Assembly: GCA_963824995.1 (NCBI GenBank) | Contig: CAWGRK010000017.1 | Coordinates: 11,143 to 75,142 of the forward strand | Reading direction: 5' to 3' | Length of the DNA stretch: 64,000 bases | Source of the DNA: an uncultured Actinomycetes bacterium | Lineage (GTDB): Bacteria; Actinomycetota; Acidimicrobiia; Spongiisociales; DATADW01 | Part shown: one piece after another, positions 8,172 to 62,770 of the stretch | How positions within the stretch are numbered: position 1 is the first letter of the stretch | How the letters are laid out: each line of letters begins with the position of its first letter | Position numbers and translations under genes: made by a program | The notes under the pieces: model-generated | The model's database searches: none | What the model was told of the DNA's origin: nothing | Seen by the model: the letters and a program-made list of their open reading frames with translations, nothing else

Positions 8172-8251
8172 GGCCGGCGTCTCAGTTCCCCTGGCGAAGC
8201 CGAGGGGGGCTGGTTCATTCCCAAACGTACGCTGGGGGGGACGGATTCGGC

Positions 8252-11200
8252 TTGGCTTCCGTCTTCCGTCTCTCTTCTACCATCTCGGGGCTCGTGCCCG
8301 CGCCGCTCGCTTCGCTGGTCGAACGGTGGCGGCCCCACAAACTCCCCGGTGCGACCGGGCGGCTCGTGGTGCCGCCCAATGCCCGCGCCATCCTTCTCGG
8401 CGGTCTGGCCGCCAAAGCTCCGGGCGCGGTACTGGCAGTCGTTCCCGGCGAGCGCGACGCCGAGGAGCTAGCCGACGACCTCGAGCTCTTCACCGAGCGT
8501 GTCGCTCTGCTGCCGGCATGGGAGACGCTGCCCTTCGAACACGTCTCACCCAACGTTGGCACCATGGCGCGAACGCGCCCGTGCCAGGCACGTCCTCAGC
8601 GAAAACGAGCCGGGAACGGTGGTGGTGGCGTCGGCCCGCTCGGTCTCGCAGCGGGTCAGCCCTTCGGCGGTGGAACCGATCACTGCGGAACCAGGCGAGG
8701 ACGTTGGGTTCGAGCGGCTCATCAGGGACCTCGCCCTGGCGGGCTATCACCGATCCGATCGGGTGGAGGCCCGGGGTGAAGTGGCGGTGCGGGGCGGGAT
8801 CATCGACGTGTTCCCCGCCCAAGGCGATGAGCCGGTCCGGATCGAGTTGTGGGGCGATGAGGTCGACTCCATCCGCGTGTTCGCCATCTCGAGCCAGCGG
8901 TCGATCGAGCCGGCCCCTGGGCTGGTGGCCTACCCAGCACGGGAGTTTCGTCCGGAGGGTCTGGTGGCAGATGAGGCGCGCCGCCTGCTCAACACCGAGC
9001 CATGGGCCGCCGCCACCTGGGAGCGCCTCGCCGAAGGGCTCGTCTTCCCCGGCATGGAGTCGTGGCTCCCGTGGATGACCCCACCGGTCACGGTCCTCGA
9101 CGAGCTTCCGCCTGGTGCCCGGTTGGTGGTCTTCGACCCTGTGAGGGCGGGTGACCGCAGCCGCGATCTGGTCAAGGAGGAGGCGGAGCTCGCAGCGGCG
9201 CTGGCCCCGACGTGGGGTCACGGCGCTCCCGAGGCTGGAGAGCACCCCTCCCTGTACCTCGATCTCGGCCGGTCGCTCGAGGACCGCGATCTGCTGGCTG
9301 CCCCACCGCTGGCGGCCGGACCGAGCGATGATCGGATCGAGGTTCGTGGGCTCGACGCCACCCCTGGGGACCCCGAGTCGATTGGGCGCGGTCTCGACCG
9401 ATTGATGGCGAGAGGGACCACGGTCGTGGTGGCGATGGACGGCGAGACCGCCGCCGACCGGGTGGCCGGAGTCCTTGCGGACGAGGGTCTTGCCCTTCCC
9501 CGCCGCCCCACGCTCGACAAAGTGGAGTCGGCTGTGCTGTCGATCGGGATCCACCGCGGTTTCGTGCTTCCTTCGCTCGACATCGCCGTCCTCGGCGAAC
9601 AGGAGATCGCCGGTAGGCGACGAGCGCACCGCCGTGCCGCCCGCCGCGCCCCGGCAACCGGAGGGGACTACCGGGACCTCACGCCTGGCGACTATGTGGT
9701 CCATCATCGCCACGGGATCGGTCGCTTCGAGGGGATGGTGACCCGGAGCATCGCCGGTGTGGAGCGTGATTACCTGGTGGTGGCATACGCAGCGGGTGAT
9801 CGCCTCTATGTCCCCACCGACCAGCTTGCTGCAGTGCGCAAGTACACCGGCGGAGAGGAACCGCGCATCTCCCGGATGGGGGGCAAGGACTGGGCCGAGA
9901 CCCGGGCTCGGGTGCGGAGGGCGGTGGCGGCGGTGGCGGAGCAGGTTGTGGCGCTGCACCGCGCCCGTGCCGCAGCCAAAGGGCACGCATACCCCCCCGA
10001 CGCAGCCTGGCAGCGGGAGATGGAGTCCGCCTTTCCATACGAGGAGACGCCCGATCAACTCACCGCCATCGTCGATGTCAAGGACGACATGCAGCAGGAC
10101 CGGCCGATGGATCGGTTGGTCTTTGGCGATGTTGGGTACGGGAAGACCGAGGTGGCGATTCGTGCCGCCTTCAAAGCGGTCCTCGACGGCAGGCAGGTGG
10201 CGGTGCTGGTGCCCACCACGCTCTTGGCTCAGCAGCACCACCAGACATTCTCCGAGCGCTTCGCCCCCTACCCGATCAGGGTCGAGGTGCTCTCCCGGTT
10301 CCTCACCCAGCGCCAGCAGAAGACCGTCGTCGAAGCGATGAGGCGCGGCGACGTGGACGTGGTCATCGGCACCCACCGGCTGCTCTCCGACGACATCCAC
10401 TGGAAGGACCTCGGACTGCTCGTGGTAGACGAGGAGCAGCGCTTCGGGGTGAACGCCAAGGACGCCATAAAGCAGCTCCGGGTCGGGGTGGATGTCCTCA
10501 CCCTCACCGCCACGCCGATCCCGCGGACGCTTGAGATGGCGCTCACCGGCATACGGGACGTGAGCCACATCCGTACACCCCCAGAGGACAGGCACCCCAT
10601 CCTCACCTACGTCGGTCCATACGACCAACAGGCGGTAGCCGCGGCGATCCGTCGTGAGTTGCTGCGCGAAGGACAGGTCTTCTACGTGCACAACCGGGTG
10701 CGGTCGATCGAACGTGCCGTCGCCCAGTTGAGGGAACTGGTCCCCGATGCCAGGTACGCGGTGGCTCATGGCCAGATGTCCGAAGGGCAACTCGAGCAGG
10801 TCATGCTCGACTTCTGGAGCGGTGAAGCCGACGTCCTCGTAGCCACGACCATCATCGAGTCCGGACTCGACCTGCCCCAGGTGAACACGCTTGTGGTGGA
10901 GCGGGCCGACCTGCTCGGTCTCGCCCAGCTATATCAGTTGCGCGGCCGTGTCGGTCGGTCCAGCCAGCGGGCCTACGCCTACCTGTTCCACCCGACTGAT
11001 CAATCGATCACCGAAGAGGCCCACCGGCGGCTCGAGGCGATCGGCGAGGCGACCGACCTGGGGTCCGGTTTCCAGTTGGCTCTGCGCGATCTGGAGATCC
11101 GCGGTGCCGGTTCCGTCCTCGGCGAGATCCAGTCGGGGCAGATCGCGGCGGTCGGCTTCGACCTCTACGCCGAGATGGTGGCCGACGCCATCCGCCAGAT

Positions 11201-11678: not shown

Positions 11679-12829
11679 TGCCGAAACGGGCCCGGTTGGC
11701 GGTCGGCGCCGTGTTCTTGATCAACGGCCTGGGGATAGCGACCTTCCTCCCTCGGCTCCCCGAGATCCAGCAACGGCTCGGGCTGAGTGATGCCGGGTTG
11801 GGCGCCGCCCTCACCGGAGCCGGGTTAGGTGGCCTCCTCGGCAGTCTGGCTGCCGGTCCGATCGTCTCCCGCCTTGGGAGCCGCAAGGCAACCCTTGCCG
11901 CCGGGACCGTCCTCGGCGTGGCGCTCTTCCCGCTCGCGATCGCCCCGAGCGGCGCCGTACTTGCTTTAGCCCTGGCCGCTGTCGGTTTCGCCGACGCCGT
12001 GACCGATATCGCCATGAACGCCCACGGCATGAGGGTTCAGCGGTTCTATCCCCGGCCCATCATCAACGGTTTCCACGCCGCCTGGAGCGTCGGCGCCATG
12101 ACCGGGGCGCTGTTGGGGAGCCTGGCTGTTGCCTTGACGGTTCCGCTGCAGGCCCAGATGGCGGTGATCTCCGTGCTCGTGGTCTGCGCTCTCTGGGTAG
12201 CCGTTGCATGGTTCCTCGCCGATGATCCGGCGAGTGCGGTTGTCCCCGGGGTCCGCCCCCGTCTGCGCGGCCTTGGGGCGCTTGCCGTGGTTGCGCTGGG
12301 GACCGGGATCATCGAAGGCGCACCCGCTGACTGGGGAGCCGTATATCTGGAGGGGACGGTGGGCGCGCGCGCCGCCGTCGCTGGGCTCGGTTACACGGTC
12401 TTCGCCGGTGCCATGCTGGTCGGACGCATGGTGGCCGACCGCTTCGTCCATCGTTTTGGGCGGGCTGTCGTCGTTCGCGTTGGAAGCCTGCTCGGTGTCG
12501 CCGGGTTCTTCATCTCGATCGGCGTGCCCTCCGTGTGGGGTGTGATGATCGGGTTCGCCGTAGCCGGCATCGGGCTTGCCGCCCTGTTCCCCGCCATGTT
12601 CGCCGCCGGGAGCGAAGTGCCCGGGCTGGGCGAGGGAGTGGGTATCGCCGGTACGTCCCTACTCGCCCGGATCGGATTCATGGTGGGTCCATTTGGGATC
12701 GGAGCGCTCGCCGAAGCAACCGGCAGCCTCCGCTGGGGGCTGCTGGTCGCACCCGTGGCCGGGTTGGCGGTGGCCATCGCCGCCAGGGCGGTCGGTGAGC
12801 GCCATACCCTCGAACCGTTGGAGATGTGA
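11678..12829 (+). CDS. MFS transporter
   Basis: About 12 TM helices with an MFS-like loop (GPIVSRLGSRKA). GTG 11678 overlaps the mfd TAG by 1 nt. Confidence 0.75.
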   Translation: MPKRARLAVGAVFLINGLGIATFLPRLPEIQQRLGLSDAGLGAALTGAGLGGLLGSLAAGPIVSRLGSRKATLAAGTVLGVALFPLAIAPSGAVLALALAAVGFADAVTDIAMNAHGMRVQRFYPRPIINGFHAAWSVGAMTGALLGSLAVALTVPLQAQMAVISVLVVCALWVAVAWFLADDPASAVVPGVRPRLRGLGALAVVALGTGIIEGAPADWGAVYLEGTVGARAAVAGLGYTVFAGAMLVGRMVADRFVHRFGRAVVVRVGSLLGVAGFFISIGVPSVWGVMIGFAVAGIGLAALFPAMFAAGSEVPGLGEGVGIAGTSLLARIGFMVGPFGIGALAEATGSLRWGLLVAPVAGLAVAIAARAVGERHTLEPLEM

Positions 12830-23739: not shown

Positions 23740-23848
23740 CCCTCCGGCTTCCTGCGTGACTGATGTCCCTATCCGGTTGTTCAGTCACGCAAGAACGGAT
23801 GGCCGTCCTCCCTCCGCCTTCCTGCGTGACTGATGCACCTATCGGTTG
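23740..23848 (+). repeat. 70-bp-period direct repeat (2 copies of about 40 bp) in the pncA-pncB intergenic region; copy 1 contains a 10-bp-stem hairpin
   Basis: Copy 1 is ccctccggcttcctgcgtgactgatgtccctatccggttg (23740-23779). Copy 2 is ccctccgccttcctgcgtgactgatgcacctatcggttg (23810-23848). GCGTGACTGA (23754-63) pairs with TCAGTCACGC (23781-90). Confidence 0.8.
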
Positions 23849-23856
23849 CGCAGATC

Positions 23857-23881
23857 GTCCGCCGTCCGCCGTCCGCCGTCC
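23857..23881 (+). repeat. tandem heptamer array (GTCCGCC) x3.5
   Basis: Read directly: gtccgcc gtccgcc gtccgcc gtcc. It is the reverse complement of the GGACGGC arrays elsewhere. Confidence 0.9.
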
Positions 23882-31348: not shown

Positions 31349-31414
31349 CTAGACGGTGGCTCGCTCGCTTCGCTCGCTCGCCGTTATGGGTGGTGAGTTA
31401 TGGGTTGTGAGTTC
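31349..31414 (+). repeat. intergenic composite repeat, copy 1 (TAGACGG + GCTCGCTCGC x2 + GTTATGGGT x2)
   Basis: tagacggtggctcgctcgcttcgctcgctcgccgttatgggtggtgagttatgggttgtgagtt. A related copy lies at 38700-38755. Confidence 0.8.
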
Positions 31415-37513: not shown

Positions 37514-38692
37514 ATGAACCGGAAACCCGTTCGTTCCTTGTGGTCTCTATTGGCGGTGCTAGCCCTAGTGGTCGCCGCTTGCGGCGGTGACGACGGCGAC
37601 GGAGCCGGCACCACAGTTGCGGGGGGTGGCGCCGGCACCACGGTTGCGGGCGGCGCCGGCACCACAGTTGCCGCGGCCGGTGAGGCACCGGCATGCGAGC
37701 CGGGTCAGACCGATGGCGATCTCAATCTCTACAACTGGTCGGATTACATCGACCCCGAGTTGCTCACTGCTTTCGAGGAGGAGTCCGGGGTGGCCGTCAG
37801 CGAGACGTTCTACGACTCCAACGAGACGATGCTGGCTCAGATCCAGACCGGCGCCGTGTACGACCTGATCGTTCCATCCGACTACATGGTTCAGATAATG
37901 ATCACCGACGGCTTGCTGCTGCCGCTGCAGAAAGATGCCATACCGAACATCGACAATCTGGCCGAGGAGTTCCAGGCCCCGCCATACGACCCGGACCTCA
38001 CCTATTCCGTGGGCTACCAATGGGGAACCACCGGTCTCGGGGTTGATACCGAGGTGGTCGGCACCGATTTCCCCGCGAGTTGGGCACTGGTGTTCGACCC
38101 GGAAGTGACCGAACCGTACGCCGGCCAGATCTCGCTACTCAACGACGCTCGGGAGACTTTGGGAGCCGCCCTCAAGTACCTCGGCTACTCGCTCAACAGC
38201 GAGAGCCAGGAGGAGGTGGACGCCGCCGCCGCGCTGATCAGCGACAACATCGACCGGATCACCAAGTTCGACTCAGACCTCTACACCGACGATCTGGTCA
38301 ATGGCGAGGTGGCGGTCTCGCACGGCTACAGCGGGAACTTCTTCACCGCCTTCGCCGCCACCGACAACCCAGAGCGTTATGCCTATGTCATCCCCGAGGA
38401 GGGCGCCACCCTGTGGACGGACAACATGGCGATCCCCGCCGGAGCGGAGCATCCATGTACTGCTCACGCCTTCATCAACTTCCTGCTGGACGCCGAACGG
38501 GGGGCTCAGTTGACCAACTGGAACTACTACGCGAGCCCGAACGGGGCCTCCGCCGAGTTCATCCTCCCCGAAGTCCTCGAAGACCCCACCATCTACCCGC
38601 CGCCGGACATCAGAGACGGACTCGAGATCATCCACAACACCGGGGACTTCGAGATCGCCTACACCGACGCCTTTGCAGCGGCGAGGAGTTGA
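37514..38692 (+). CDS. potD: polyamine ABC transporter substrate-binding lipoprotein
   Basis: Lipobox LVVAAC. LNLYNWSDYIDPELL, VPSDYMV, TLWTDNMAIP. The linker carries 3 tandem GAGTTVAGG repeats. Confidence 0.85.
   Translation: MNRKPVRSLWSLLAVLALVVAACGGDDGDGAGTTVAGGGAGTTVAGGAGTTVAAAGEAPACEPGQTDGDLNLYNWSDYIDPELLTAFEEESGVAVSETFYDSNETMLAQIQTGAVYDLIVPSDYMVQIMITDGLLLPLQKDAIPNIDNLAEEFQAPPYDPDLTYSVGYQWGTTGLGVDTEVVGTDFPASWALVFDPEVTEPYAGQISLLNDARETLGAALKYLGYSLNSESQEEVDAAAALISDNIDRITKFDSDLYTDDLVNGEVAVSHGYSGNFFTAFAATDNPERYAYVIPEEGATLWTDNMAIPAGAEHPCTAHAFINFLLDAERGAQLTNWNYYASPNGASAEFILPEVLEDPTIYPPPDIRDGLEIIHNTGDFEIAYTDAFAAARS
37601..37676 (+). repeat. in-frame tandem repeat (24-27 bp x3) in the potD lipoprotein linker
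   Basis: gccggcaccacRgttgc occurs at 37604, 37631 and 37655, encoding GAGTTVAGG three times. Confidence 0.85.
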
Positions 38693-38699
38693 GAGAGGA

Positions 38700-38755
38700 G
38701 GCTCGCTCGCTGGGCTCGCTCGCGTTATGGTTCGTGGGTCGTGGGTTATGGGTTT
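38700..38755 (+). repeat. intergenic composite repeat, copy 2
   Basis: ggctcgctcgctgggctcgctcgcgttatggttcgtgggtcgtgggttatgggttt. It lies just after the potD stop and overlaps the last codons of the convergent grpB-family gene. Confidence 0.8.
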
Positions 38756-44411: not shown

Positions 44412-44513
44412 CGGCCCGCTCCCTTGTGCTGGTCGGGCCGTACACGCCGGCCGACCAGGCCGAGGGGGCTGGAGGACCCGCCCCTTCGGGCACCCCCATT
44501 TCGGTCCGATTCC

Positions 44514-44534
44514 GCCGTCTGCCGTCCGCCGTCT
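44514..44534 (+). repeat. tandem heptamer array (GCCGTCY) x3 abutting the ALDH stop codon
   Basis: gccgtct gccgtcc gccgtct. On the ALDH coding strand it reads TAG-ACGGCGGACGGCAGACGGC. Confidence 0.9.
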
Positions 44535-45965
44535 AGCGGAGCGTGAACACCACCGTCTGCAGGTCGGTGAACTCCTCGATGCGCTGGCGGCCCCATCCGG
44601 TGTCGGTGCCGGCGGCACCGCCGAAGGGTTGGAATGTCTCCCAGAAGTCGGTGGAGTCGTTCACCACGACGGTGCCCGAGCGGATCCGGTCGGCGTACCA
44701 CCAGGCGCGTGACAGGCTCTCGGTGAACACCGCCGCCTGCAGCCCGAGCCGGCTGCGGTTGGCGAGGGCGACCGCTTCCTCGTCGTCTTTGACGGTGAGG
44801 ATGGGGACCACCGGACCAAACGATTCTTCTTGGGCGATCATGCTCTCCTCGGATACGCCATCTACCACGGTGAACTCGTAATAGAGGTCGGTTGGGTGCC
44901 CCGATGCCCTGCCGGCCACCGACGCAGGATCTCGGCGCCACGCTCCCGGGCATCTTCGAGATGGCGGTCCATCTTCGCGGCGGTAGGAGCGTTGTTGAGC
45001 GGCCCCATCGTGGTGTCTTCGTCGAAGGGGTCACCCAAGCGGACCACCTCCGCCGCCTTGAGCGTCGCCGCCACGAACTCGTCGTGGACCTCTTCCAGCA
45101 CCACGACGCGCTCGGTGGCGCAGCAGACCTGACCGGCGTTGTAGTAGGCGCCGTAGACCGCCGCCTCGGCGGCGGCGGCCACATCACCGTCTCCGGTGAC
45201 GATGAGCGGGCCATTGCCCGACATCTCCATGATCGAGCGCTTCAGTCCCATCTGGGAGACGATGCGACGCCCCGTCTGCGACGACCCGGTGAATCCGATG
45301 GCGTCCACCCCGGGGTGGGTGACCAGTGACTCGCCGATATCGCCGCCGCCGGGGATCACGTTGATTGCTCCCGCGGGGGCTCCTGCGTCGTCGAAGACCT
45401 TGGCCATCTCGAGGAGCGCCCAGCAGGTGAACTCGGGTGGTTTGACGATCATGGCGTTCCCGGTGGCCAGGCCCGGGCCGACGTACTCCATAGGGATCAT
45501 GACCGGGAAGTTCCAGGGGGTGATCGCCGCCCATACCCCCACCGGGCGTCTCACGGTGAACATCCTCCGGTTCCGTTCCGTGGTCGGGATCAGGTCCCCG
45601 CTCAGTCGCTTCACGTCCTCGGCGGCGATCTGGAAATAGTCTCCCGACTCGGCGATGTCGTCGATCGCCTCGGCGTGGAACGGCTTCCCCTGTTCGAGGG
45701 TGAGGATCCGGGCTACCTCGTCCACACGCTCCTGCCACAGCTCGTATATCCGGAGGCACAGATCGGCACGCTCAAACGCGGTCCAGTGCCTCATCTCAGC
45801 TGCGGCTTCCCTGGCGGCGGCAACCGCTCTGTCGATATCTGCCTGCGAGGCCTTGGGGACCGTGTAGATGTGCTCGCCAGTAACCGGAGAGCGGACCTCG
45901 TAGCTGTCGCCGCCGGTTCCGTCGGTCCAGCCACCCGCGATGTAGAGCTGCAGATCGACCGCCAC
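44533..45965 (-). pseudogene. NAD(P)-dependent aldehyde dehydrogenase, frame break(s) at about 44915-44925 as sequenced
   Basis: GAGGAGG RBS 7 nt before GTG 45965. AAITPWNFP, FTGSSQTG, EMSGNGP, GQVCCATER, then the frame change, then EESFGPV. Two +1 insertions 12 nt apart would restore ...EILVGGRRASGHP. Confidence 0.8.
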
Positions 45966-46052
45966 GGCCGTACCTCCTCGACCCCTTTCTGCTTTCTGAA
46001 GCCGCCAAGTTACCGAGGCCGGAACCGCAAGGGCGGCGCCTACCGTTTCCTG

Positions 46053-47160
46053 GTGGTGAAGAAACTCGCCGTCGTTTTGGCTCTCCTGCTGGTCGCCGGG
46101 CGTGTGGCCGGCAGGCGAGTCCACCACCACGCTCGAGGCCGACGCCACCACGGTTCCTGCAACGACTCCGACCACGGTGGCCGCCTCGTCGTCCACCACC
46201 GCTGCGGCCGAAACCACCACCTCGACCCCGACGACCTCGGCAGCGCCCACGACGACCGCGCGCCGGCGTCCGAGTCCTGCCGGTGTCTGATCGGCAACTC
46301 GTCGGGGATCTTCTTCGCCGAACCGGGCGAGGATCCGCAACCGGTGGCCGACGGCCCGGTGATCGCGGTGCGCGACGACCTCGCCGGCGGGTTGGTGGTG
46401 CAATTCGCCGGGCCCGAGGGTCGCCCCGGCGTGGTATCGCACGTGCCCGCCCAGGGCAAGCCGTGGATACTCCTCTCTCCAGGGAGCGGCGGCTGGGTGA
46501 CTTTGGAAGATGTCGAGCGCATAGGGGGCGACGCCGACCGTGGTCGCCATCGTGTGGACCGGTTCGGCGATCCTGATGCTCAACGGGTGACCCTGGAAAC
46601 CGTGGACCTCACCAATCGGGAGCGGCGGCAGGTGGCAGTCGTCGGCGGGCACAGAGTCTGCGGCGGGACCGGTATCTGCCGACCCGGAGGGATACGTGCT
46701 GAACAGGTATCTCGAGGCCTCGTCGTGGGTGGAGTTCCTCGACCATGCAGGCGAAGCTGCGCCCGGCCCCGTTCAACCCCAATCCCGGAGTGCCAGGACG
46801 ATGTCTACCTGCCCCCGCTCGGTGGTGACTTCGGAAGATGGGGCCACACTCGCCTACCTGGTGACGGTCCCTGGTGAAGGCGTGGCCGACGGCGTCGACC
46901 TCGTCGTCGCCGATGCCGCCACCGGTGAGGAGTTAGCCCGCCAAGGTTTGCCCGTCGCCGGGTTTGCCACCGTCGGGGTGGACATCGTCGGAGACCTCGT
47001 GCTGGTCAACCGTCTCGCAGCCGGCCCCAGTGGTGAGCCCACCGAGCCGACCTTCCCCATGGTCTTCGACCTCGCCAAGGGTGAACTCAACGAGATCCCG
47101 ATGGCCGGTACCGGCTCGCTGGCGAGGACCGCTCCCGAGGTCGAGGGCTCCCTGCGCTGA
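46053..47160 (+). pseudogene. putative secreted/lipoprotein with a Thr/Ala/Pro-rich linker, at least 3 frame changes as sequenced
   Basis: Signal-like VVKKLAVVLALLLVAG is in frame 0. Linker ESTTTLEADATTVPATTPTTVAASSSTTAAAETTTSTPTT is in frame 1. Domain PVADGPVIAVRDDLAGGLVVQF is in frame 0. The C-terminus from YLEASSWVEFLDH is in frame 1. Confidence 0.4.
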
Positions 47161-48532: not shown

Positions 48533-49701
48533 GCCGGATCGCCCTGCTCGGTGCCGGGATCATCGGGCGGGTCATCGCCCGCGACCTGGCCACGTGGGAT
48601 CGGCCCGACGAGGTGGTGGTGGGCGATCTCGACCCGGAGAGGGCCAAGGCGGCTGGCGGACGAGCACGGCTTCGACGGGGCGGATGTTGACGTCCTCGAC
48701 CCCGATTCGCTCGATGCCTTTCTCACCGGCGCTTCCGTGGTGGTCAACGCCGCCCAGTACCACGTCAACCTCGCCGTCATGGAGGGGGCGCTTCGGGCTG
48801 GATGTCACTACCTCGACCTCGGCGGGCTGTTTCACACCACGCGACGTCAGCTGGAACTGGGGGAGCGGTTCGAGGAAGCCGGGCTCAGCGCGGTCCTCGG
48901 AATCGGTTCCTGCCCCGGGATCGCCAACGTCCACGCCGGCGATCTCGGTTCGCGGCTCGACCAGGTCCGCTCGGTTCGGATCTTCAACGGCGCCACGATC
49001 GACCCCTCGGATCGGATTACCTGGCCCTACTCGCTCTGGACGATCCTCGACGAGGTCACAGAGCGCCCGGTCGTCTTCCGCGGCGGTCGAGTTCGTCGAG
49101 GTGGAGCCGCTTGTCCGAAGAGGAGCCGTTTCCCGTTTCTCGAACCGATCGGGCATGCCACCACCCACCTCTCGCTCCACTCGGAGGTGGCCACCATCCC
49201 GGTGAGCCTGGCGGCGAAAGGGATCGAGCGGTGCGAGTTCAAGATCCGATTCTTCGGCCTGTCCGAACCCGCCCTCCGCAAACTCGCCTTCCTCGCATCG
49301 ATCGGTCTCGCCTCCACCGAACCGAGGACCGTCGGCGAAGCGAGAGGGGTGATCCCCCGCCGCCTCCTCGTGGACCTGCTCGAGGAGACGGCCCCGCCTC
49401 CTCCCGAGCACGCAGGGTTCAAGGACATAGCGACCGTGGCTGAGGGCACGAAGGACGGTGTTGCGACCAGGCTCCGCCTGGATGCAACGGCTTGGCCGTC
49501 ACCCGAATTGGGAGTCGGCGGCGGAACGGTGGCGGTGGCAGCCCCGCCCGCCGTCGTCGCCCGATGGCTGGCCGGCGACGCGCTTACGCCCCCGGCGTCC
49601 ACCCCCCGGAGACCGTGATCGATCCCCGCCCCTTCTACGAGCAACTGGCCCGTCGCGGGATCACGACCACCCTCAGCGAGGAGACCGTCCTGGCGGGATA
49701 G
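48529..49701 (+). pseudogene. saccharopine dehydrogenase family protein, at least 5 frame changes as sequenced
   Basis: VSRIALLGAGIIGRVIARDL (GTGA overlap with the upstream gene). Frame breaks lie near 48650, 49088, 49113, 49135 and about 49590. The conserved EFVEVEPL / SEEEPFP / FLEPIGHATTHLSLHSE segments sit in three successive frames. Confidence 0.7.
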
Positions 49702-49714
49702 ACGGCAGACGGCA
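49701..49714 (+). repeat. tandem heptamer array (GACGGCA) x2 starting at the stop codon of the saccharopine-dehydrogenase-family gene
   Basis: taGACGGCAGACGGCAgc. Confidence 0.8.
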
Positions 49715-49811
49715 GCAAATCCCACGCTGCCTGACTCCCGACGTGGCGTAATCACCCCCTCCGCTCGCTCCGCTCGCGCCTCCCCTCACCGGGGTAGGCA
49801 GAAACCTGTCT

Positions 49812-49844
49812 CCTTCCTTCCGTCTTCCGACTTCCGTCTTCGCC
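49812..49844 (+). repeat. tandem heptamer array (CTTCCGT-like) x4, inverted relative to 49701-49714
   Basis: ccttc cttccgt cttccga cttccgt cttcgcc. The reverse complement contains GACGGAA units. Confidence 0.8.
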
Positions 49845-52081: not shown

Positions 52082-53718
52082 ATGGCCAAGATCCACGGCG
52101 GTCAGATCGTCGCCCGGGCGCTGCGCGCCGAGGGTGTCGACGCCATCTTCACCCTCACCGGCGGGCACATCGTCCCCATCCTCGACGGGTGTGTCCAAGA
52201 GGGGATCCGAGTGGTTGATGTACGCCATGAGCAGGCCGCGGCCCACGCCGCCGAGGCCTACACGCGCCTCACCGGGCGGCTCGGAGTGGCCGCGGTCACC
52301 GCCGGTCCCGGGGTGACCGATGCCATCACCGGGGTGGCAACCGCCTGGTATTCGCAGACGCCGATGCTGCTCCTCGGCGGCCGTCACCTTCTCCGTCAAG
52401 AACTCAGGGGTGGACTCCAGGAGATGGATCATCCCCGGCTCTTTGGATCCCATCACCGCTTGGTCGGGTACCTGCTGGCAGGTGGAGAGGCTGGCCGACC
52501 ACGTTGCAGTGGCGGCGCGGCATGCATTTGCCGGTCGGGGAGCCCCGGTGTTCCTCGACATACCGATGGACGTCCAGTTCGACATGGTGGAGGAGACCGC
52601 GGTCAATTGGCCAACTCGATACCGGGTGACCCAGCCGAGCGGCGTCGACCCTGAGACGCTCGACAATCTGGTCGACGCTCTGGCGAAGAGCCAGCGACCG
52701 ATGGTCTTCGCCGGGGGAGGCCTGCGCGGTCCCGACGCTGCGAACCTGGCACGACCTCGTCGAGGCTCTGCAGGCGCCGGCATTCGTGAACAGCCGGGCG
52801 AGAGGTGCCCTCCCGTTCGGTCATCCATTGCTCGGCAACCATGCCCGGTCGCTCGCCTTTGCCGGATGCGACCTGGTGCTTGCGCTCGGGGTCGACTGGG
52901 ACTTCCGCACGTCGTACGGGGACAAGATCGGTGCGGAGGCGGTGGTGATCCAGGTCGATGCCGACCCGGAGAAGATCGGGTGGAACCGCTCGGCGAACAT
53001 CGGGGTCGTGGCCGACCCGGCCCGGGTCGCCACCCAGTTGGCCGACTGCTGCCGATCGCTATGCACGGACCGATACCCCCGGGTGGACCAAGGAGATCAT
53101 GGACGAGGAGGAGACCCGACAAGGCTGCCGCCGAGGCCGAGGCAGACTCCGACGACTCACCCGTCCACCCGCAGCGGTTTGGCCGCGAGGTCGGCGCGCT
53201 TCTTTGGCACGGACTCGATCGTCGCCGTGGATGGTGGCGACATCGTCTCGACTACCGCCCGCTGGCTCCAGGTCTCCACTCCGGGTCACGTGCTCGACCC
53301 GGGCCCGTTCGGGACGCTTGGCACCGGCGTGCCCTACGCCATCGCCGCCAAGGTGACGCACCCCGACAAGCTCGTCGGGATCGTGTTCGGCGACGGAGCC
53401 TTCGGCTTCAACGGGTTCGAGTACGACACCCTGGTCCGCCTCGACTTGCCCGTCGTCGGGGTCTTGGGCAACGACGGGGTGTGGAACAACATCCGGACCT
53501 TCCACCGAGCCATGTTCCCGGAGCGGCTCGTCGCCTCGGAACTCGGCCGCCGTCCCTACCACGCCGTGGTAAACGCCCTCGGCGGACACGGCGAGTTGGT
53601 CGAGGATCCCGCCGACCTCGCACCCGCCCTGGAGCGCGCCCGGGCCTCCGGCAAGCCGTCACTCGTCGATGTCCACATCGCCGAGACGATGCGGATGTCG
53701 AGCAACTACAGCCAGTAG
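52082..53718 (+). pseudogene. thiamine-pyrophosphate enzyme (acetolactate synthase large-subunit-like), 5 x +1 frame changes as sequenced
   Basis: VDAIFTLTGGHIVPILDG...VRHEQAAAHAAEAY...AGPGVTDAITGVATA; C-terminal TPP motif GTLGTGVPYAIAAK...GDGAFGFNG...LGNDGVWNN. Breaks lie near 52450, 52750, 53047, 53117 and 53199. Confidence 0.75.
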
Positions 53719-53721
53719 CAC

Positions 53722-53744
53722 GGACGGCGGACGGCGGACGGCGG
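53722..53744 (+). repeat. tandem heptamer array (GGACGGC) x3 starting 3 nt after the stop of the TPP-enzyme gene
   Basis: TAGcac ggacggc ggacggc ggacggc gg. Confidence 0.9.
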
Positions 53745-53807
53745 CCAATCCGAATCCGTCCCGACGTAGGAGGTTGTCTCGTTCCGTCCCCCGGAGGGGG
53801 GAAAGGC

Positions 53808-53850
53808 CCCGCTGCGCCAGCAGCGGGTAGGGGGCCGGCGAACTCCCAAC
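53808..53850 (+). repeat. 43-nt hairpin module, copy 1 (CCCGCTGCG-loop-CAGCGGG + TAGGGGG..CGAACTCCCAAC)
   Basis: ccccgctgcgccagcagcgggtagggggccggcgaactcccaac. Near-identical to 59795-59837. Confidence 0.85.
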
Positions 53851-53858
53851 TTCGGTAT

Positions 53859-53875
53859 GCCGCCGTCCACCGTCC
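53859..53875 (+). repeat. short inverted heptamer pair (CGCCGTC CACCGTC) closing the 53.7-kb element
   Basis: gc cgccgtc caccgtc c. Orientation is opposite to the 53722-53744 array. Confidence 0.6.
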
Positions 53876-53879
53876 AGAA

Positions 53880-53898
53880 CAGGCGGCAGAGCCGCCTG
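53880..53898. terminator. GC-rich hairpin between the convergent TPP-enzyme and uppP genes (candidate bidirectional terminator)
   Basis: CAGGCGGC-aga-GCCGCCTG, an 8-bp stem with a 3-nt loop. It lies 3 nt downstream of the uppP stop. No clear U tract. Confidence 0.4.
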
Positions 53899-53900
53899 CT

Positions 53901-54665
53901 CTACAACAGCACTATCAGGGCGAAGGTGCCGAAGACGAAGCAGTAGATGGCGAAGGGGAGCAGACCGACGGTCTGCAGGGCCCGCAACAGCAGGGCTATG
54001 GCGAAGTAGCCGGAAATCGCCGCTACCACCGTCCCGACCCAGACCTGCGAGGAGATCCCTCCGTCGTTTACCAGATCGACTACTCCGACCAAGCCGGCGG
54101 CAGCGATGGTGGGAATCCCAAGCAGGAATGAGAAGCGCGCCGCCTCCAGAGGAGTGAGTCCTCTCGATTCCCCGACGGTGATCGTGGTGCCCGAACGGGA
54201 GATTCCCGGGAGCAGGGCAACGAGTTGAACCAGACCCACCAGGAAGGCGTCGAGCGGTCGCGCCTCCTCCAGCCTCATCCGGCCCGAGGTGAGACGGCTC
54301 CCCACCACCAGGATGAACCCGTTGACGATAAGTAGCGCCGCAGCGACCCAGGCGATCGTCTGGAGTTGTTCGAGCGGTCCTATCAGCGGCAGGGCGGCCA
54401 CAGCCGGCAGCGTGCCCACGATCACCAGCAGGAGCATCCGCCTTGCCTCCGGGTCGGACCGGAACCGGAGCATGCGGACCAGGTCGGCGCGGAAATAGGC
54501 GACCACCGCCACCAGTGTCCCTAGGTGGAGCACGGCCACGGTGGCGAGATCGGGCGGCTCCACTCCGGGGAGCAGCGCCGGGATCAGGACGAGGTGGCCG
54601 TCCGAGGAGATGGGGAGGAACTCCGTTATCCCTTGGACGAGTCCCCACACGATGGCTTGCAGCAC
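53901..54665 (-). CDS. uppP: undecaprenyl-diphosphatase
   Basis: GITEFLPISSDGHL and PGISRSGTTI motifs, 8 TM helices. Intact reading frame. Confidence 0.9.
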   Translation of the reverse strand: MLQAIVWGLVQGITEFLPISSDGHLVLIPALLPGVEPPDLATVAVLHLGTLVAVVAYFRADLVRMLRFRSDPEARRMLLLVIVGTLPAVAALPLIGPLEQLQTIAWVAAALLIVNGFILVVGSRLTSGRMRLEEARPLDAFLVGLVQLVALLPGISRSGTTITVGESRGLTPLEAARFSFLLGIPTIAAAGLVGVVDLVNDGGISSQVWVGTVVAAISGYFAIALLLRALQTVGLLPFAIYCFVFGTFALIVLL

Positions 54666-58440: not shown

Positions 58441-59678
58441 TGCGCCCCCTGCGCGAGGCGCAGGCAAAGGTGCTCTCAGGAGTTAGCCGGCTCCCCGTCA
58501 CCGAGGTCGAACTGGGAAAAGCACTCGGTCTGGTGCTTGGCCGAAGAGGTGCGGGCACCCCACGACGTTCCGCCCTTCGCCAACTCGGCAATGGACGGTT
58601 ATGCGGTCATCGCCGCTGACGTCGCCGCGGCACCGGTGACCTTGGAGGTGGTCGAGGATGTCGCAGCAGGCCGCGTGCCCACCCTGTCGGTGACACCGGG
58701 GAGCGCCATCAAGATCATGACCGGTGCCACCATCCCCGAAGGGGCCGACGCCGTGGTCCCTGTCGAGGTCACGAACCAAGAGGGCGACCGGGTCGAGATA
58801 CGTGAGGCGGTGCCCAAGGGTGCCTCGGTGCGCGCCGCCGGGGGAGACATGGCCGCCGGGTCCACCGTGCTGCGGATGGGGGAGAGGATGGGACCGGCAC
58901 ACCTGGCGGTCCTCGCCTCCATCGGCGTGGCCAGGGTCAAGACATACGGCCGCCCCAAGGTGGCGATCATGTCAACCGGGGACGAACTGCGGCCCCCGGA
59001 GACAGCCGAACTCGATCCCGGACTCATCCGAGACACCAACCGTCCTCTGCTCGGTGCGCTCCTAGCCGAGGTGGGCGTCGAGGTGATCGATCTCGGCATC
59101 ATCCCCGATGACGAAGCGACGCTGCGCTCGGCGTTGCTGCGGCGGCTCGGATGAAGCGGACGCAGTGGTCACATCGGGCGGTGTTTCGATGGGGGACTAC
59201 GACCTGGTGAAACAGCTGGTCGGCGAGTTGGGCGGGCATGGAGGTCTGGCAGACGGCGATGCAGCCGGCCAAACCCTTCGCTTTCGGTCGCCTCGGCGGG
59301 ACCCCATTCTTCGGTCTCCCCGGCAACCCGGTTTCGGTGATGGTCGCCTTCGAGCAGTTCACCCGCCCTGCGCTCCTCCAGATGATGGGGTCCGAGAAGC
59401 TGTTCCGTCCCCGTCTCGAAGGCGTCCTCGTCGGTGGCGCCGATACCGATCCGGCCAAGACAGTCTTCCTGCGGGTGCGCACCTGGTGGGATGTTGGAGT
59501 CCTGTTCGCCGAGTCCGCCGGCGCCCAGTCATCCAACGTCCTCTCCGCCCTGGCCGCCGCCGACGCATTCGCCGTGGTCCCCGAGGGCGTCTCGACCGTC
59601 CCCGCCGGCGGCCCAGTGACCCTCGAGATGTTCCGTCAACCCGAATCCCGCACCGCCACCGAGGCACTGGCGCAATGA
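58440..59678 (+). pseudogene. moeA: molybdopterin molybdotransferase, 3 x +1 frame changes as sequenced
   Basis: FANSAMDGYAV, IMTGATIPEGADAVV, STGDEL, TSGGVSMGDYD, FGLPGNPVS. Breaks lie near 58535, 59140 and 59235. The start overlaps the galU stop (TGATG). Confidence 0.8.
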
Positions 59679-59713
59679 GACGGCAGACGGCAGACGGCAG
59701 ACGGCAGACGGCT
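59679..59713 (+). repeat. tandem heptamer array (GACGGCA) x5 starting immediately after the moeA stop codon
   Basis: TGA gacggca gacggca gacggca gacggca gacggct. Confidence 0.95.
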
Positions 59714-59794
59714 GGCGAACACTGCGAGCAGCGCCCCCTCTTCCGTTCATCCACAAAGGCTGAGGCCCCCCTGCGAAGAAGCGCCTTCCGTCTA

Positions 59795-59837
59795 CCCGCT
59801 GCGAAGCAGCGGGTAGGGGGGCTGCCGAACTCCCAAC
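59795..59837 (+). repeat. 43-nt hairpin module, copy 2
   Basis: acccgctgcgaagcagcgggtaggggggctgccgaactcccaac. It lies 24 nt upstream of the moaC ATG. Confidence 0.85.
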
Positions 59838-59860
59838 GGTGCTCGACTCTCGGCCCGCCG

Positions 59861-61538: not shown

Positions 61539-61612
61539 GGGGGTGTAGCTCAGCCCGGCAGAGCGCTTCCCTCGCACGGAAGAAGCCAGGGGTTCAAATC
61601 CCCTCACCTCCA
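61539..61612 (+). tRNA. tRNA-Ala (anticodon CGC), CCA not encoded
   Basis: Acceptor stem GGGGGTG/CACCTCC with the G3:U70 pair. D stem GCTC/GAGC. Anticodon stem CTTCC/GGAAG with loop CTCGCAC. T arm AGGGG-TTCAAAT-CCCCT. Confidence 0.85.
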
Positions 61613-62770
61613 CCGAAAGCCCTGGTCAGCAGGGCTTTTCGGCGGCTCGGGGAAGTTCGACGACGGCCCCGGGTCCGCGGCGGGTCCGCGGCTGGGTCCG
61701 CGGGACGCCCCAGGAATGCCTCGAGCCGGTCCTGCAACCTGGACGTCGAGCCCTTCCATCAAGTGCCCATAGACATCCATCGTCACCCGGATGGAGGAGT
61801 GCCCGAGTCGCTCCGAGATCACCTTGGGATGCTCAGCTTGGGCGATCAGGTGGGCGGCGTGGGAGTGTCGCAGGTCGTGGAAGTCGAGCCCTTCAGGCCG
61901 GCTCCGCTCCGTCGCCGGGGTCCAGAAACGCTGCCGCCACGATTCGGCGACTACCAGCCCGCCCTTCGGCGAGGTGACCACGATCGTCCTCCCCTGCCGG
62001 GTACAGCGCCAGGTGCTCGGCGATCCGTCGACCAGCACCGGGGGAGCGGTGACTGTCCTCCTCGAGTCAGCGGTCTTCAGTGGGGCCGAGCTGCGCCCTG
62101 CCGTTGGGGGCGATCACCTGACGCTCAACCCGGACCCGTGCGGGCAGTCGAGCAGAAGGAGATCCTCGACCTTCAGTCCGAAGACTTCGCCTTGACGTAA
62201 TCCGAGGGTGCCACCGCGACGCCCCCGATAGCGACGGTCGATGCTCCCTGCGATGTCCCATAGTTGATCGGGGTCACGATCCGCATCGGCTTGGACTCGT
62301 CGCGGGGAAGGTGGATCCCTACGCATCGTGTCCGTGCCAGGTAGCCGTCGACCACCGCCTGGTCGCAGACAATCTTCACCACCAGGTACGCCTTCTCCAC
62401 GGTGGCCGGCGCGTACCGCGGCCATCATTGACGACCAGGGCGCGGACGTGGCCGGGGTGATGTTGGCCAGGGCGGGCGCGGTCGCCGACCGCGGGGAGGA
62501 CGTGCTTGCGGAGAAGGCTCTGCTCGGTGAGCGACGAGTTGGCACGTAGGTGGACCCGGCCGGCCATCACCAACTCGGCGTAGTTGGAGAACGTGTGGCG
62601 GCCGAGCTCGCCGCGGTCCACGTCCCCAACCGGACCTTTCGCTCTTCGTCCTCCGCCCAGTGCAGGGCGTCCCCCTTCCGGTTGTGGAGCTTGGTGTGCT
62701 CCTTGCCATCGGCGCCCCGGTACCGGCCCTGCCAGCGATTGGTCTTCGGGTGCCTTCTTACGTGGGCCAT
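61604..62770 (-). pseudogene. tyrosine-type site-specific integrase, at least 6 frame changes as sequenced
   Basis: MAHVRRHPKTNRWQGRYRGADGKEH...; GLRQGEVFGLKVEDL; HDLRHSHAAHLI...LGHSSIRVTMDVYGHL. Pieces lie in all three minus-strand frames. The 3' end overlaps the tRNA-Ala 3' end by 9 nt. Confidence 0.75.

Follow-up and report, generated by a model that had tools for sequence, protein, structure and literature searches.

Between positions 53716 and 53898 of a 64,000-nt (64-kb) stretch of DNA from an uncultured Acidimicrobiia bacterium (contig CAWGRK010000017.1; the whole stretch, with a G+C content of 64-70%, is called the window here), two converging genes are separated by a 183-nt element that we denote E1; a second window cassette, at 59787-59845, is denoted E2. 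We favour, with moderate confidence, the reading that E1 is a lineage-specific non-coding insertion between the two stop codons and a mosaic of heptanucleotide tandem arrays and a hairpin cassette like those of repetitive extragenic palindromes (REP) and bacterial interspersed mosaic elements (BIME). E1 is a new, local instance of kinds of bacterial intergenic repeat that are already known, not a demonstrated transposon. An earlier note on this DNA had described it as similar to a miniature inverted-repeat transposable element (MITE) bounded by inverted heptamer arrays. Part of that description stands: E1 is extra DNA, as empty sites in relatives attest, its cassette part is dispersed, and its two arrays are able to pair. 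What did not survive is the picture of constant ends, since the ends vary, no target-site duplication was seen and there is no second full-length copy.

Judged from comparison of the locus among relatives, E1 is an insertion specific to the clade that unites the window with L206 (orthologs ~75% identical in protein), because the more distant syntenic relatives L207 and L123 hold 4 nt (TGA-GTTC-TCA) and 3 nt, respectively, between the two stop codons, as compared to 182 nt in the window. When these empty sites were compared with the filled sites of the window and L206, no target-site duplication was visible at the edges, a test whose power is limited by divergence. The edges themselves differ. 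On its left, the E1 spacer of L206 carries (TGGGTTM)4.6 and then (GGAAGAC)2, not GGACGGC; the right inverted array is missing in L206, in E2, and in the copy from L122 (an 89% relative), the last two having a single array each. The inverted arrays are thus not the conserved boundary that had been supposed. Within the 64 kb no second full-length E1 was found, and a Pfam scan of the eight flanking open reading frames (ORFs) identified no transposase partner. At the saccharopine-dehydrogenase spacer, L206 has a doublet of the cassette and the window has different modules. A mosaic of REP/BIME type fits the lack of a target-site duplication, the variable edges, the single full-length copy and the differing spacer modules better than does a transposon with fixed ends. 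The site downstream of uppP seems insertion-prone: in L121 (a 91% relative; 1301-2378), (GTACTCA)2 comes after the uppP stop, and next to it an insertion sequence (IS) with an rve integrase domain stands in place of the converging TPP-enzyme gene (TPP, thiamine pyrophosphate). An integron attC site was considered and rejected: E1 is flanked by housekeeping genes in conserved synteny, and RYYYAAC/GTTRRRY is not matched by the CCCAAC/GTTGGG ends.

The layout that had been reported for 53716-53898 (array, spacer, 43-nt module, inverted units, GC hairpin) was borne out when the sequence was re-read. The spacer separates the TPP-enzyme gene on the plus strand from uppP on the minus strand (53901-54665; undecaprenyl-diphosphatase, Pfam BacA), the closest matches of which are labelled Acidimicrobiia bacterium, reach at most 91% identity, and come from soil and water metagenomes. 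The TPP-enzyme gene ends in TAG at 53716-53718 (plus strand; sequence and ORF/Pfam scan). The array had been placed directly after this stop codon and does stand there, but CAC (3 nt) intervenes, so that the order is TAG, CAC, (GGACGGC)x3 + GG, and then a 64-nt spacer before the second hairpin. This left array, (GGACGGC)3.4 at 53721-53744 on the plus strand (Tandem Repeats Finder (TRF), 100% matches; pattern search), has as its G-rich strand the sense strand of the TPP-enzyme gene. It is followed by module b, GCCAATCCGAATCCGTCCC, at 53745-53765 (plus strand; BLAST, pattern searches, fold), the CCGTCC of which is predicted to be able to pair with the final unit of the left array; module b also occurs as the reverse complement at 8238-8256, in L122, and in L059, a distant metagenome-assembled genome (MAG). 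A stretch of ~20-30 nt (53766-53786, plus strand), compared by eye, has no counterpart in the L122 copy and is flanked on both sides by the motif CCGTCCC (53757-53763 and 53784-53790).

Three hairpins, located by folding of the plus strand, come next: H1, CCCCC-GGA-GGGGG, at 53787-53801; H2, CCCGCTGC-GCCA-GCAGCGGG, at 53808-53827; and H3, GGGGG-CCGGCGAA-CTCCC followed by AAC, at 53830-53850. H2 is the 8-bp hairpin that had been noticed inside the 43-nt module, and it is identical in the L206 ortholog. Only one further copy of the 43-nt module occurs in the window, at 59795-59837 (88.6% identity, E 3e-7 by BLAST). Downstream of the cassette, the right inverted array, CGCCGTC CACCGTC (GACGGTG GACGGCG when read on the minus strand), occupies 53859-53875 (minus strand; pattern search, fold); its sense is that of uppP, and the predicted fold joins it to the left array by base pairing. 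A GC hairpin, CAGGCGGC-AGA-GCCGCCTG, at 53880-53898 (unstranded; sequence, fold) closes the element; it adjoins the uppP stop codon (53901-53903, minus strand) and has no T tail.

Comparison with L122 and L206 showed that the conserved core is a cassette of ~75 nt, not the array. Its consensus runs ...CCGTCC; H1 CCCCCC-gna-GGGGGG; AAGGGmC; H2 CCGCTGC-nnnn-GCAGCGG; GTA; H3 GGGGGGCTGnCGAA-CTCCC; AACGGTGcTCGAC. Searches with an nhmmer profile hidden Markov model and with a covariance model returned six significant copies, spread over four non-orthologous spacers in three genomes. The alignment behind the model comprised four of these copies, namely E1 of the window (53783-53858, plus strand; 84.8 bits, E 9e-17), the orthologous E1 spacer of L206, the L122 copy, and L206 E3a in the saccharopine-dehydrogenase spacer (12511-12582, plus strand); these four match by construction and are not independent evidence. 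The two copies outside the training set are E2 (plus strand; 52.4 bits, E 9e-10), which has H2 and H3 with H1 replaced, and a copy in L206 at 12593-12670 on the minus strand (38.6 bits, E 1e-6). The latter begins 10 nt beyond E3a and forms with it an inverted doublet, one among the four loci. Every copy folds as three hairpins, and each has an adjoining heptamer array. The cassette forms a small dispersed repeat family that resembles REP/BIME elements and is confined to a narrow Acidimicrobiia clade. A weak, putative second subfamily is represented by 8186-8228 and 44432-44492, which share a hairpin and GGGGGCTGG; both are listed as weak because the covariance model did not recover them (E 0.85 or no match).

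Heptamer arrays are strongly enriched in the window. The double unit GACGGCRGACGGCR, allowing at most one mismatch, matched 13 times as compared to 0.60 expected, and none of 100 shuffles reached 13. TRF reported nine period-7 arrays of 2.3-5.0 copies with 85-100% matches. As had been stated, arrays of the GACGGCR type recur in non-coding gaps, at 8256-8271, 23856-23881, 44514-44534, 49700-49715, 49817-49841 and 59678-59712. The copy at 8256 had been set apart as an exception, yet it too is non-coding, lying between the stop of a LytR-family gene (8171) and mfd. All eight GACGGNN arrays lie in spacers, and because they share six spacers in total they are not eight independent insertions; at least eight related insertions had been proposed. 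The combination of an array with module b (AAnCnGArTCCGTCCC) occurred twice in the window, where 0.00 was expected, and was also present in L122 and L059. A GC3-based gene caller, which left 25% of the window uncalled, was excluded from the statistics.

The individual arrays differ in their surroundings. At the end of MoeA, (AGACGGC)5.0 (59678-59712, plus strand; TRF) begins within the TGA stop codon, and (GGACGGC)3.7 (23856-23881, minus strand; TRF) lies 11 nt upstream of the pncB start codon. On the minus strand at 44432-44534, (ACGGCRG)3 abuts the stop of an aldehyde dehydrogenase (ALDH) gene and is accompanied by the weak-subfamily hairpin, with its shared motif on the plus strand. The spacer at 49700-49841 (plus strand; TRF) has (AGACGGC)2.3 at the stop codon and inverted (ACGGAAG)3.6 at 49817-49841; its interior module of ~50 nt (49752-49799) is 88% identical to one in L059, in which protein matches reach only 40-50%, at the level of paralogs. 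Between the LytR-family gene and mfd, a composite at 8186-8271 (plus strand; detected only by eye and by BLAST, the model giving a non-significant E of 0.85) consists of a hairpin with GGGGGGCTGGTTCATTCCC, inverted module b, and an inverted array that reads GACGGAA on the minus strand. The same geometry, with a much larger interior, was observed in the distant Actinomycetota MAG L057 (3978-4605), where a spacer of ~490 nt between two co-directional genes has an array at both edges, (AGACGGC)5 right after the stop and inverted (CAGACGG)3.9 ~40 nt ahead of the following start codon.

A second heptamer family, GTTATGG/TGGGTCG, is present at 31383-31413 and 38726-38753, beside the module GCTCGCTCGC. 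It belongs to a second kind of composite, in which a (GCTC)n / GCTCGCTCGC module is followed by arrays of GTTATGG/TGGGTTA type with GGG tracts; this composite was observed at 31359-31413 and 38701-38753 in the window, at 16577-16625 in L206, and at 231-260 in L059. The stop codon of a converging minus-strand gene lies inside one of these arrays, at 38746-38748.

The arrays had been said to match no nameable repeat family; they belong to a known class, the heptanucleotide long simple-sequence repeats. As relayed in PMC4679880 and PMC4692102 from Mrazek (2007), no other long simple-sequence repeats are as over-represented as heptamers in many bacteria, high-G+C Actinobacteria among them. In a scan of a genome collection, (GACGGCR)3 was found at at least 120 loci, and among the matches listed the hosts were Streptomyces, Gemmatimonadota, Chloroflexota, Planctomycetota, Acidobacteriota, Bacteroidota, Acidimicrobiia and one cyanobacterium; most of the arrays listed lay within stretches of further NNNNGGC heptamers. 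Among repeat periods other than multiples of three, seven was the commonest (12 arrays) in 154 kb of unselected sequence of the clade.

The arrays also turn over fast: comparison with relatives revealed differences in length, presence and unit at the same spacers. The MoeA-MoaC spacer has five AGACGGC units and a variant unit in the window and 4.3 units in L122. Upstream of pncB, the 3.7 units of the window correspond to no array in L210 (94% amino-acid identity), which at that position has only the palindrome CCGACGGCCGTCGG; the palindrome GACGGCCGTC is what this relative has in place of the array, and it points to expansion in place from a GACGGC seed. Together with the change of unit in the E1 spacer of L206, these differences agree with an earlier report that heptamer repeats differ between close relatives and are transcribed (PMC4692102).

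The arrays have a strict polarity. The four contacts with stop codons that had been described (0-3 nt, with the G-rich strand as the sense strand in every case) hold: in addition to that of the TPP-enzyme gene, the ORF/Pfam check placed the contacted stops at 44533-44535 (minus strand; ALDH), 49699-49701 (plus strand; saccharopine dehydrogenase), and 59676-59678 (plus strand; MoeA). A set of 123 arrays from many phyla was searched for inverted partners (at least 12 of 14 bases) up to 150 nt away. Fourteen arrays had such a partner 3' of the G-rich strand and none had one 5' of it, and distant controls gave none. Inverted pairs therefore always read 5'-G-rich...C-rich-3', on both strands. In other phyla, a stop codon lay within 10 nt of 14 arrays in the G-rich sense and of 5 in the C-rich sense, according to crude gene calls.

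The proposed account of E1 is as follows. A GC-rich core of ~75 nt with three hairpins, of REP/BIME type, lies between the converging genes, with arrays at the outer edges whose G-rich strand reads inward from the neighbouring gene. The arrays turn over fast; they would originate and vary in length in situ, presumably when replication slips on a GACGGC seed or on the arm of a hairpin. If transcribed, the element would most likely give the upstream transcript a highly stable stem-loop domain at its 3' end and may act there as a barrier or stabiliser, as REP and BIME do in E. coli. Folded as RNA, 53716-53900 gave -105 kcal/mol (z -4.4), with the left array paired to the right inverted array and H1 and H2 enclosed between them, and the L206 ortholog kept H1, H2 and a 3' hairpin in its fold (z -3.1). 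The sense strand folded better than the antisense strand in seven of eight copies, as a G-rich strand would in any case. An Rfam scan of the whole window recovered only two tRNAs; the best local match scored 20.6 bits as compared to a threshold of 58 (E 1.5).

Several results weigh against this account. The long-range stem between the arrays is not kept in the fold of the L206 ortholog, and a covariation check with RNAalifold found no compensatory change among the four close cassette copies; the hairpins are therefore backed by conserved pairing potential only. No T-tailed terminator was found on either strand of 53400-54200. The TPP-enzyme gene upstream of E1 is frameshifted in the assembly (N domain in ORF 52082-52651, M and C domains in 52630-53718) and truncated to a 179-aa C-terminal remnant in L206, which weakens a role for E1 as part of its 3' untranslated region (UTR); given the remnant in L206 and the intact gene of L207 (539 aa), the split looks like real gene decay. 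It is one of three frameshift-split genes that flank arrays (TPP enzyme, 52082-53718; ALDH, 44533-46652; C-terminus of saccharopine dehydrogenase, 48551-49701), and the frameshifts in the latter two could be long-read assembly errors. Significant copies of the cassette number only two in the 64 kb and six in ~100 kb of three related genomes. A metagenome scan for the array with module b returned no match, one for a 19-mer of H3 returned 82 matches that were all chance or coding and lacked the hairpin, and a viral scan for H2 + GTAGGGGG returned none. A BLAST search of plasmids gave no match, and L210 and L211 (36 kb) contained neither arrays nor the cassette. On these results the cassette family is narrow and patchily distributed.

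Two regularities likewise tell against the account, namely the strict polarity, in which the G-rich arm comes first, and the exactness with which arrays touch stop codons. Slippage alone explains neither of them, nor the swap of heptamers at the same spacer, and together these features leave some room for a more active mechanism. One such proposal is that the arrays are polar 'caps', added in many phyla at the first bases after stop codons by an active, end-directed process, and that the composite of array and cassette is a new class of small mobile element shared by distant Actinomycetota. The process could involve a nicking or strand-transfer enzyme or hairpin-primed synthesis. If true, this proposal would account for the exchange of unrelated heptamers at one spacer, for the direction of the inverted pairs (14 to 0), and for the constant period of seven, but we consider it unlikely.

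Four other explanations were weighed against the mosaic reading. E1 could be a true MITE, with the arrays as terminal inverted repeats (TIRs), mobilised by an unseen transposase and inserting at gene ends. Inverted arrays stand at both edges of E1 and of the 49.7 kb spacer, the 490-nt spacer of L057 is bounded likewise, the G-rich strand always reads inward, as fixed transposon ends would, relatives have empty sites, and modules are common to distant MAGs at 88% identity. Yet filled and empty sites show no target-site duplication, orthologous copies differ at their ends and several copies have one array only, the array is absent from an otherwise conserved spacer in the 94% relative, the full-length element has no second copy, and no related IS was identified, the sole IS seen (L121, beside uppP) being of rve type and unrelated sequence; we regard a MITE as an improbable explanation. 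Similar doubt attaches to E1 as a structured, cis-acting RNA, be it part of a 3' UTR, a terminator of unconventional type or a small RNA. Its function would then depend on the three hairpins, and the arrays would serve as auxiliary arms for pairing. Folds more stable than shuffled controls (z -4.4 and -3.1), an H2 that is identical in orthologs ~75% identical in protein, the better folding of the sense strand in seven of eight copies, and a cassette in the sense of the upstream gene at three of four independent loci speak for it. On the other hand, there was neither an Rfam match nor covariation, the L206 copy at 12593-12670 runs antisense to the genes on either side, the cassettes lie beside unrelated genes (TPP enzyme/uppP, MoeA/MoaC, saccharopine dehydrogenase), the gene upstream of E1 is decaying, and G-U pairing alone would make a G-rich sense strand fold better.

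We attach still less probability to the view that only GC-rich microsatellites are involved, with arrays and hairpins as unrelated by-products of high-G+C spacers and no family at all. In its favour, the array is widespread among unrelated genomes, crude gene calls put 52 of 134 arrays from other phyla within coding ORFs, and 36 kb of two relatives contain neither array nor cassette. The recurrence of the cassette at non-orthologous sites (E 1e-6 to 1e-18), the two pairings of array and module b where 0.00 was expected, the array beside every cassette copy, the polarity of 14 to 0, and the start of four arrays 0-3 nt from a stop codon are all foreign to it, and the results on array and module b, polarity and cassette already largely refute it. 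Least probable of all, in our judgement, is that the arrays are regulatory repeats selected near gene ends for their capacity to form G-quadruplexes in DNA or RNA, as proposed for Xanthomonas GGGAATC. Judged from sequence, (GGACGGC)3.4 contains seven GG tracts separated by loops of 1-2 nt, GGG tracts are available in the second family (TGGGTTA), and the placement rule is that of PMC4692102, but AGACGGC and GACGGAA have one GG per unit with 5-nt loops and would form at best a weak two-layer structure, and unit numbers of 2.3-5 show no preference for four.

A few features of the window lie apart from E1. Upstream of pncB (nicotinate phosphoribosyltransferase, NAPRTase), a 34-nt module is duplicated 70 nt apart (23740-23850); its first copy forms an 11-bp palindrome, TGCGTGACTGA...TCAGTCACGCA, and the hairpin is conserved as one copy in the 94% relative (L210 10525-10575); the fold has z -4.0. 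It could be an operator or an RNA element for NAD salvage; a NAD riboswitch found no support in Rfam. At 663-1064, a 177-nt unit is repeated 2.2 times with 73-81% matches, probably as a repeated protein domain of 59 residues, and L080 gives a translated match to the region. A unit of 24-27 nt is repeated three times at 37600-37680, near the start of the ORF at 37514-38692, and an 11-nt unit, CGGGTCCGCGG, three times at 61670-61703, ~55 nt downstream of tRNA-Ala (61539-61614).

In this compact genome of an uncultured Acidimicrobiia bacterium, much of the scarce intergenic DNA consists of two fast-evolving types of repeat. The locus supplies matched filled and empty sites as well as relatives with different heptamers at one spacer, material useful for the question of why bacteria favour seven-base repeats set against stop codons with a fixed polarity. 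The arrays are length-variable markers for strain typing in metagenomes and likely sources of assembly and annotation errors.

The closest parallels to the arrays are the GGGAATC and GGGGA(C/T)T repeats of Xanthomonas and Nostoc (Rehm 2015, PMC4692102; PMC4679880), which share with them a 7-nt unit in 2-6 head-to-tail copies, a strong non-coding bias, variation in length and sequence at the same spacer in close relatives, and occasional inverted pairs able to form stem-loops. Here, in contrast, the units are GACGGCR, GACGGAA or TGGGTTA and occur in an uncultured member of the Acidimicrobiia, the arrays are joined physically to a hairpin cassette, and GACGGCR has only GG tracts and hence weak quadruplex potential. 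The TAACTGA repeats of Beggiatoaceae, cyanobacteria and Bacteroidetes (MacGregor 2015, PMC4679880) are likewise tandem intergenic heptamers in contact with gene ends in distant phyla, and neither they nor the arrays described here have a known mechanism of origin; they differ in being AT-rich, in containing stop codons in all frames, in lying mostly just upstream of starts, and in having no cassette. E1 shares with MITEs its nature as a small non-coding insertion, the inverted ends of two window spacers, and presence or absence that differs between relatives, whereas its ends are variable microsatellites, not fixed TIRs, and it has no target-site duplication and no full-length paralogous copies. 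In cyanobacteria, short tandemly repeated repetitive (STRR) heptamers reportedly contain nested small dispersed repeats of 21-27 nt. They resemble the present case in that tandem heptamers form the context of short, hairpin-forming dispersed repeats, but the phylum and the sequences are others, and nested repeats of 21-27 nt there compare with a 75-nt cassette here. REP, BIME and REPIN are short, GC-rich, imperfect palindromes found outside genes, often at their 3' ends, in hundreds per genome and typically as inverted doublets, and REP and REPIN are linked with a gene for a RAYT, a tyrosine transposase like that of IS200/IS605, which is flanked by the repeats. Likewise, the cassette described here is a dispersed extragenic GC-rich palindrome combined with other short motifs into mosaics, and it has one inverted doublet (L206 12511-12582, plus strand, and 12593-12670, minus strand). 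It differs from REP in that its unit comprises three consecutive hairpins (~75 nt) in a handful of copies and in that GTAG stands 3' of H2, not at the 5' head of the palindrome.

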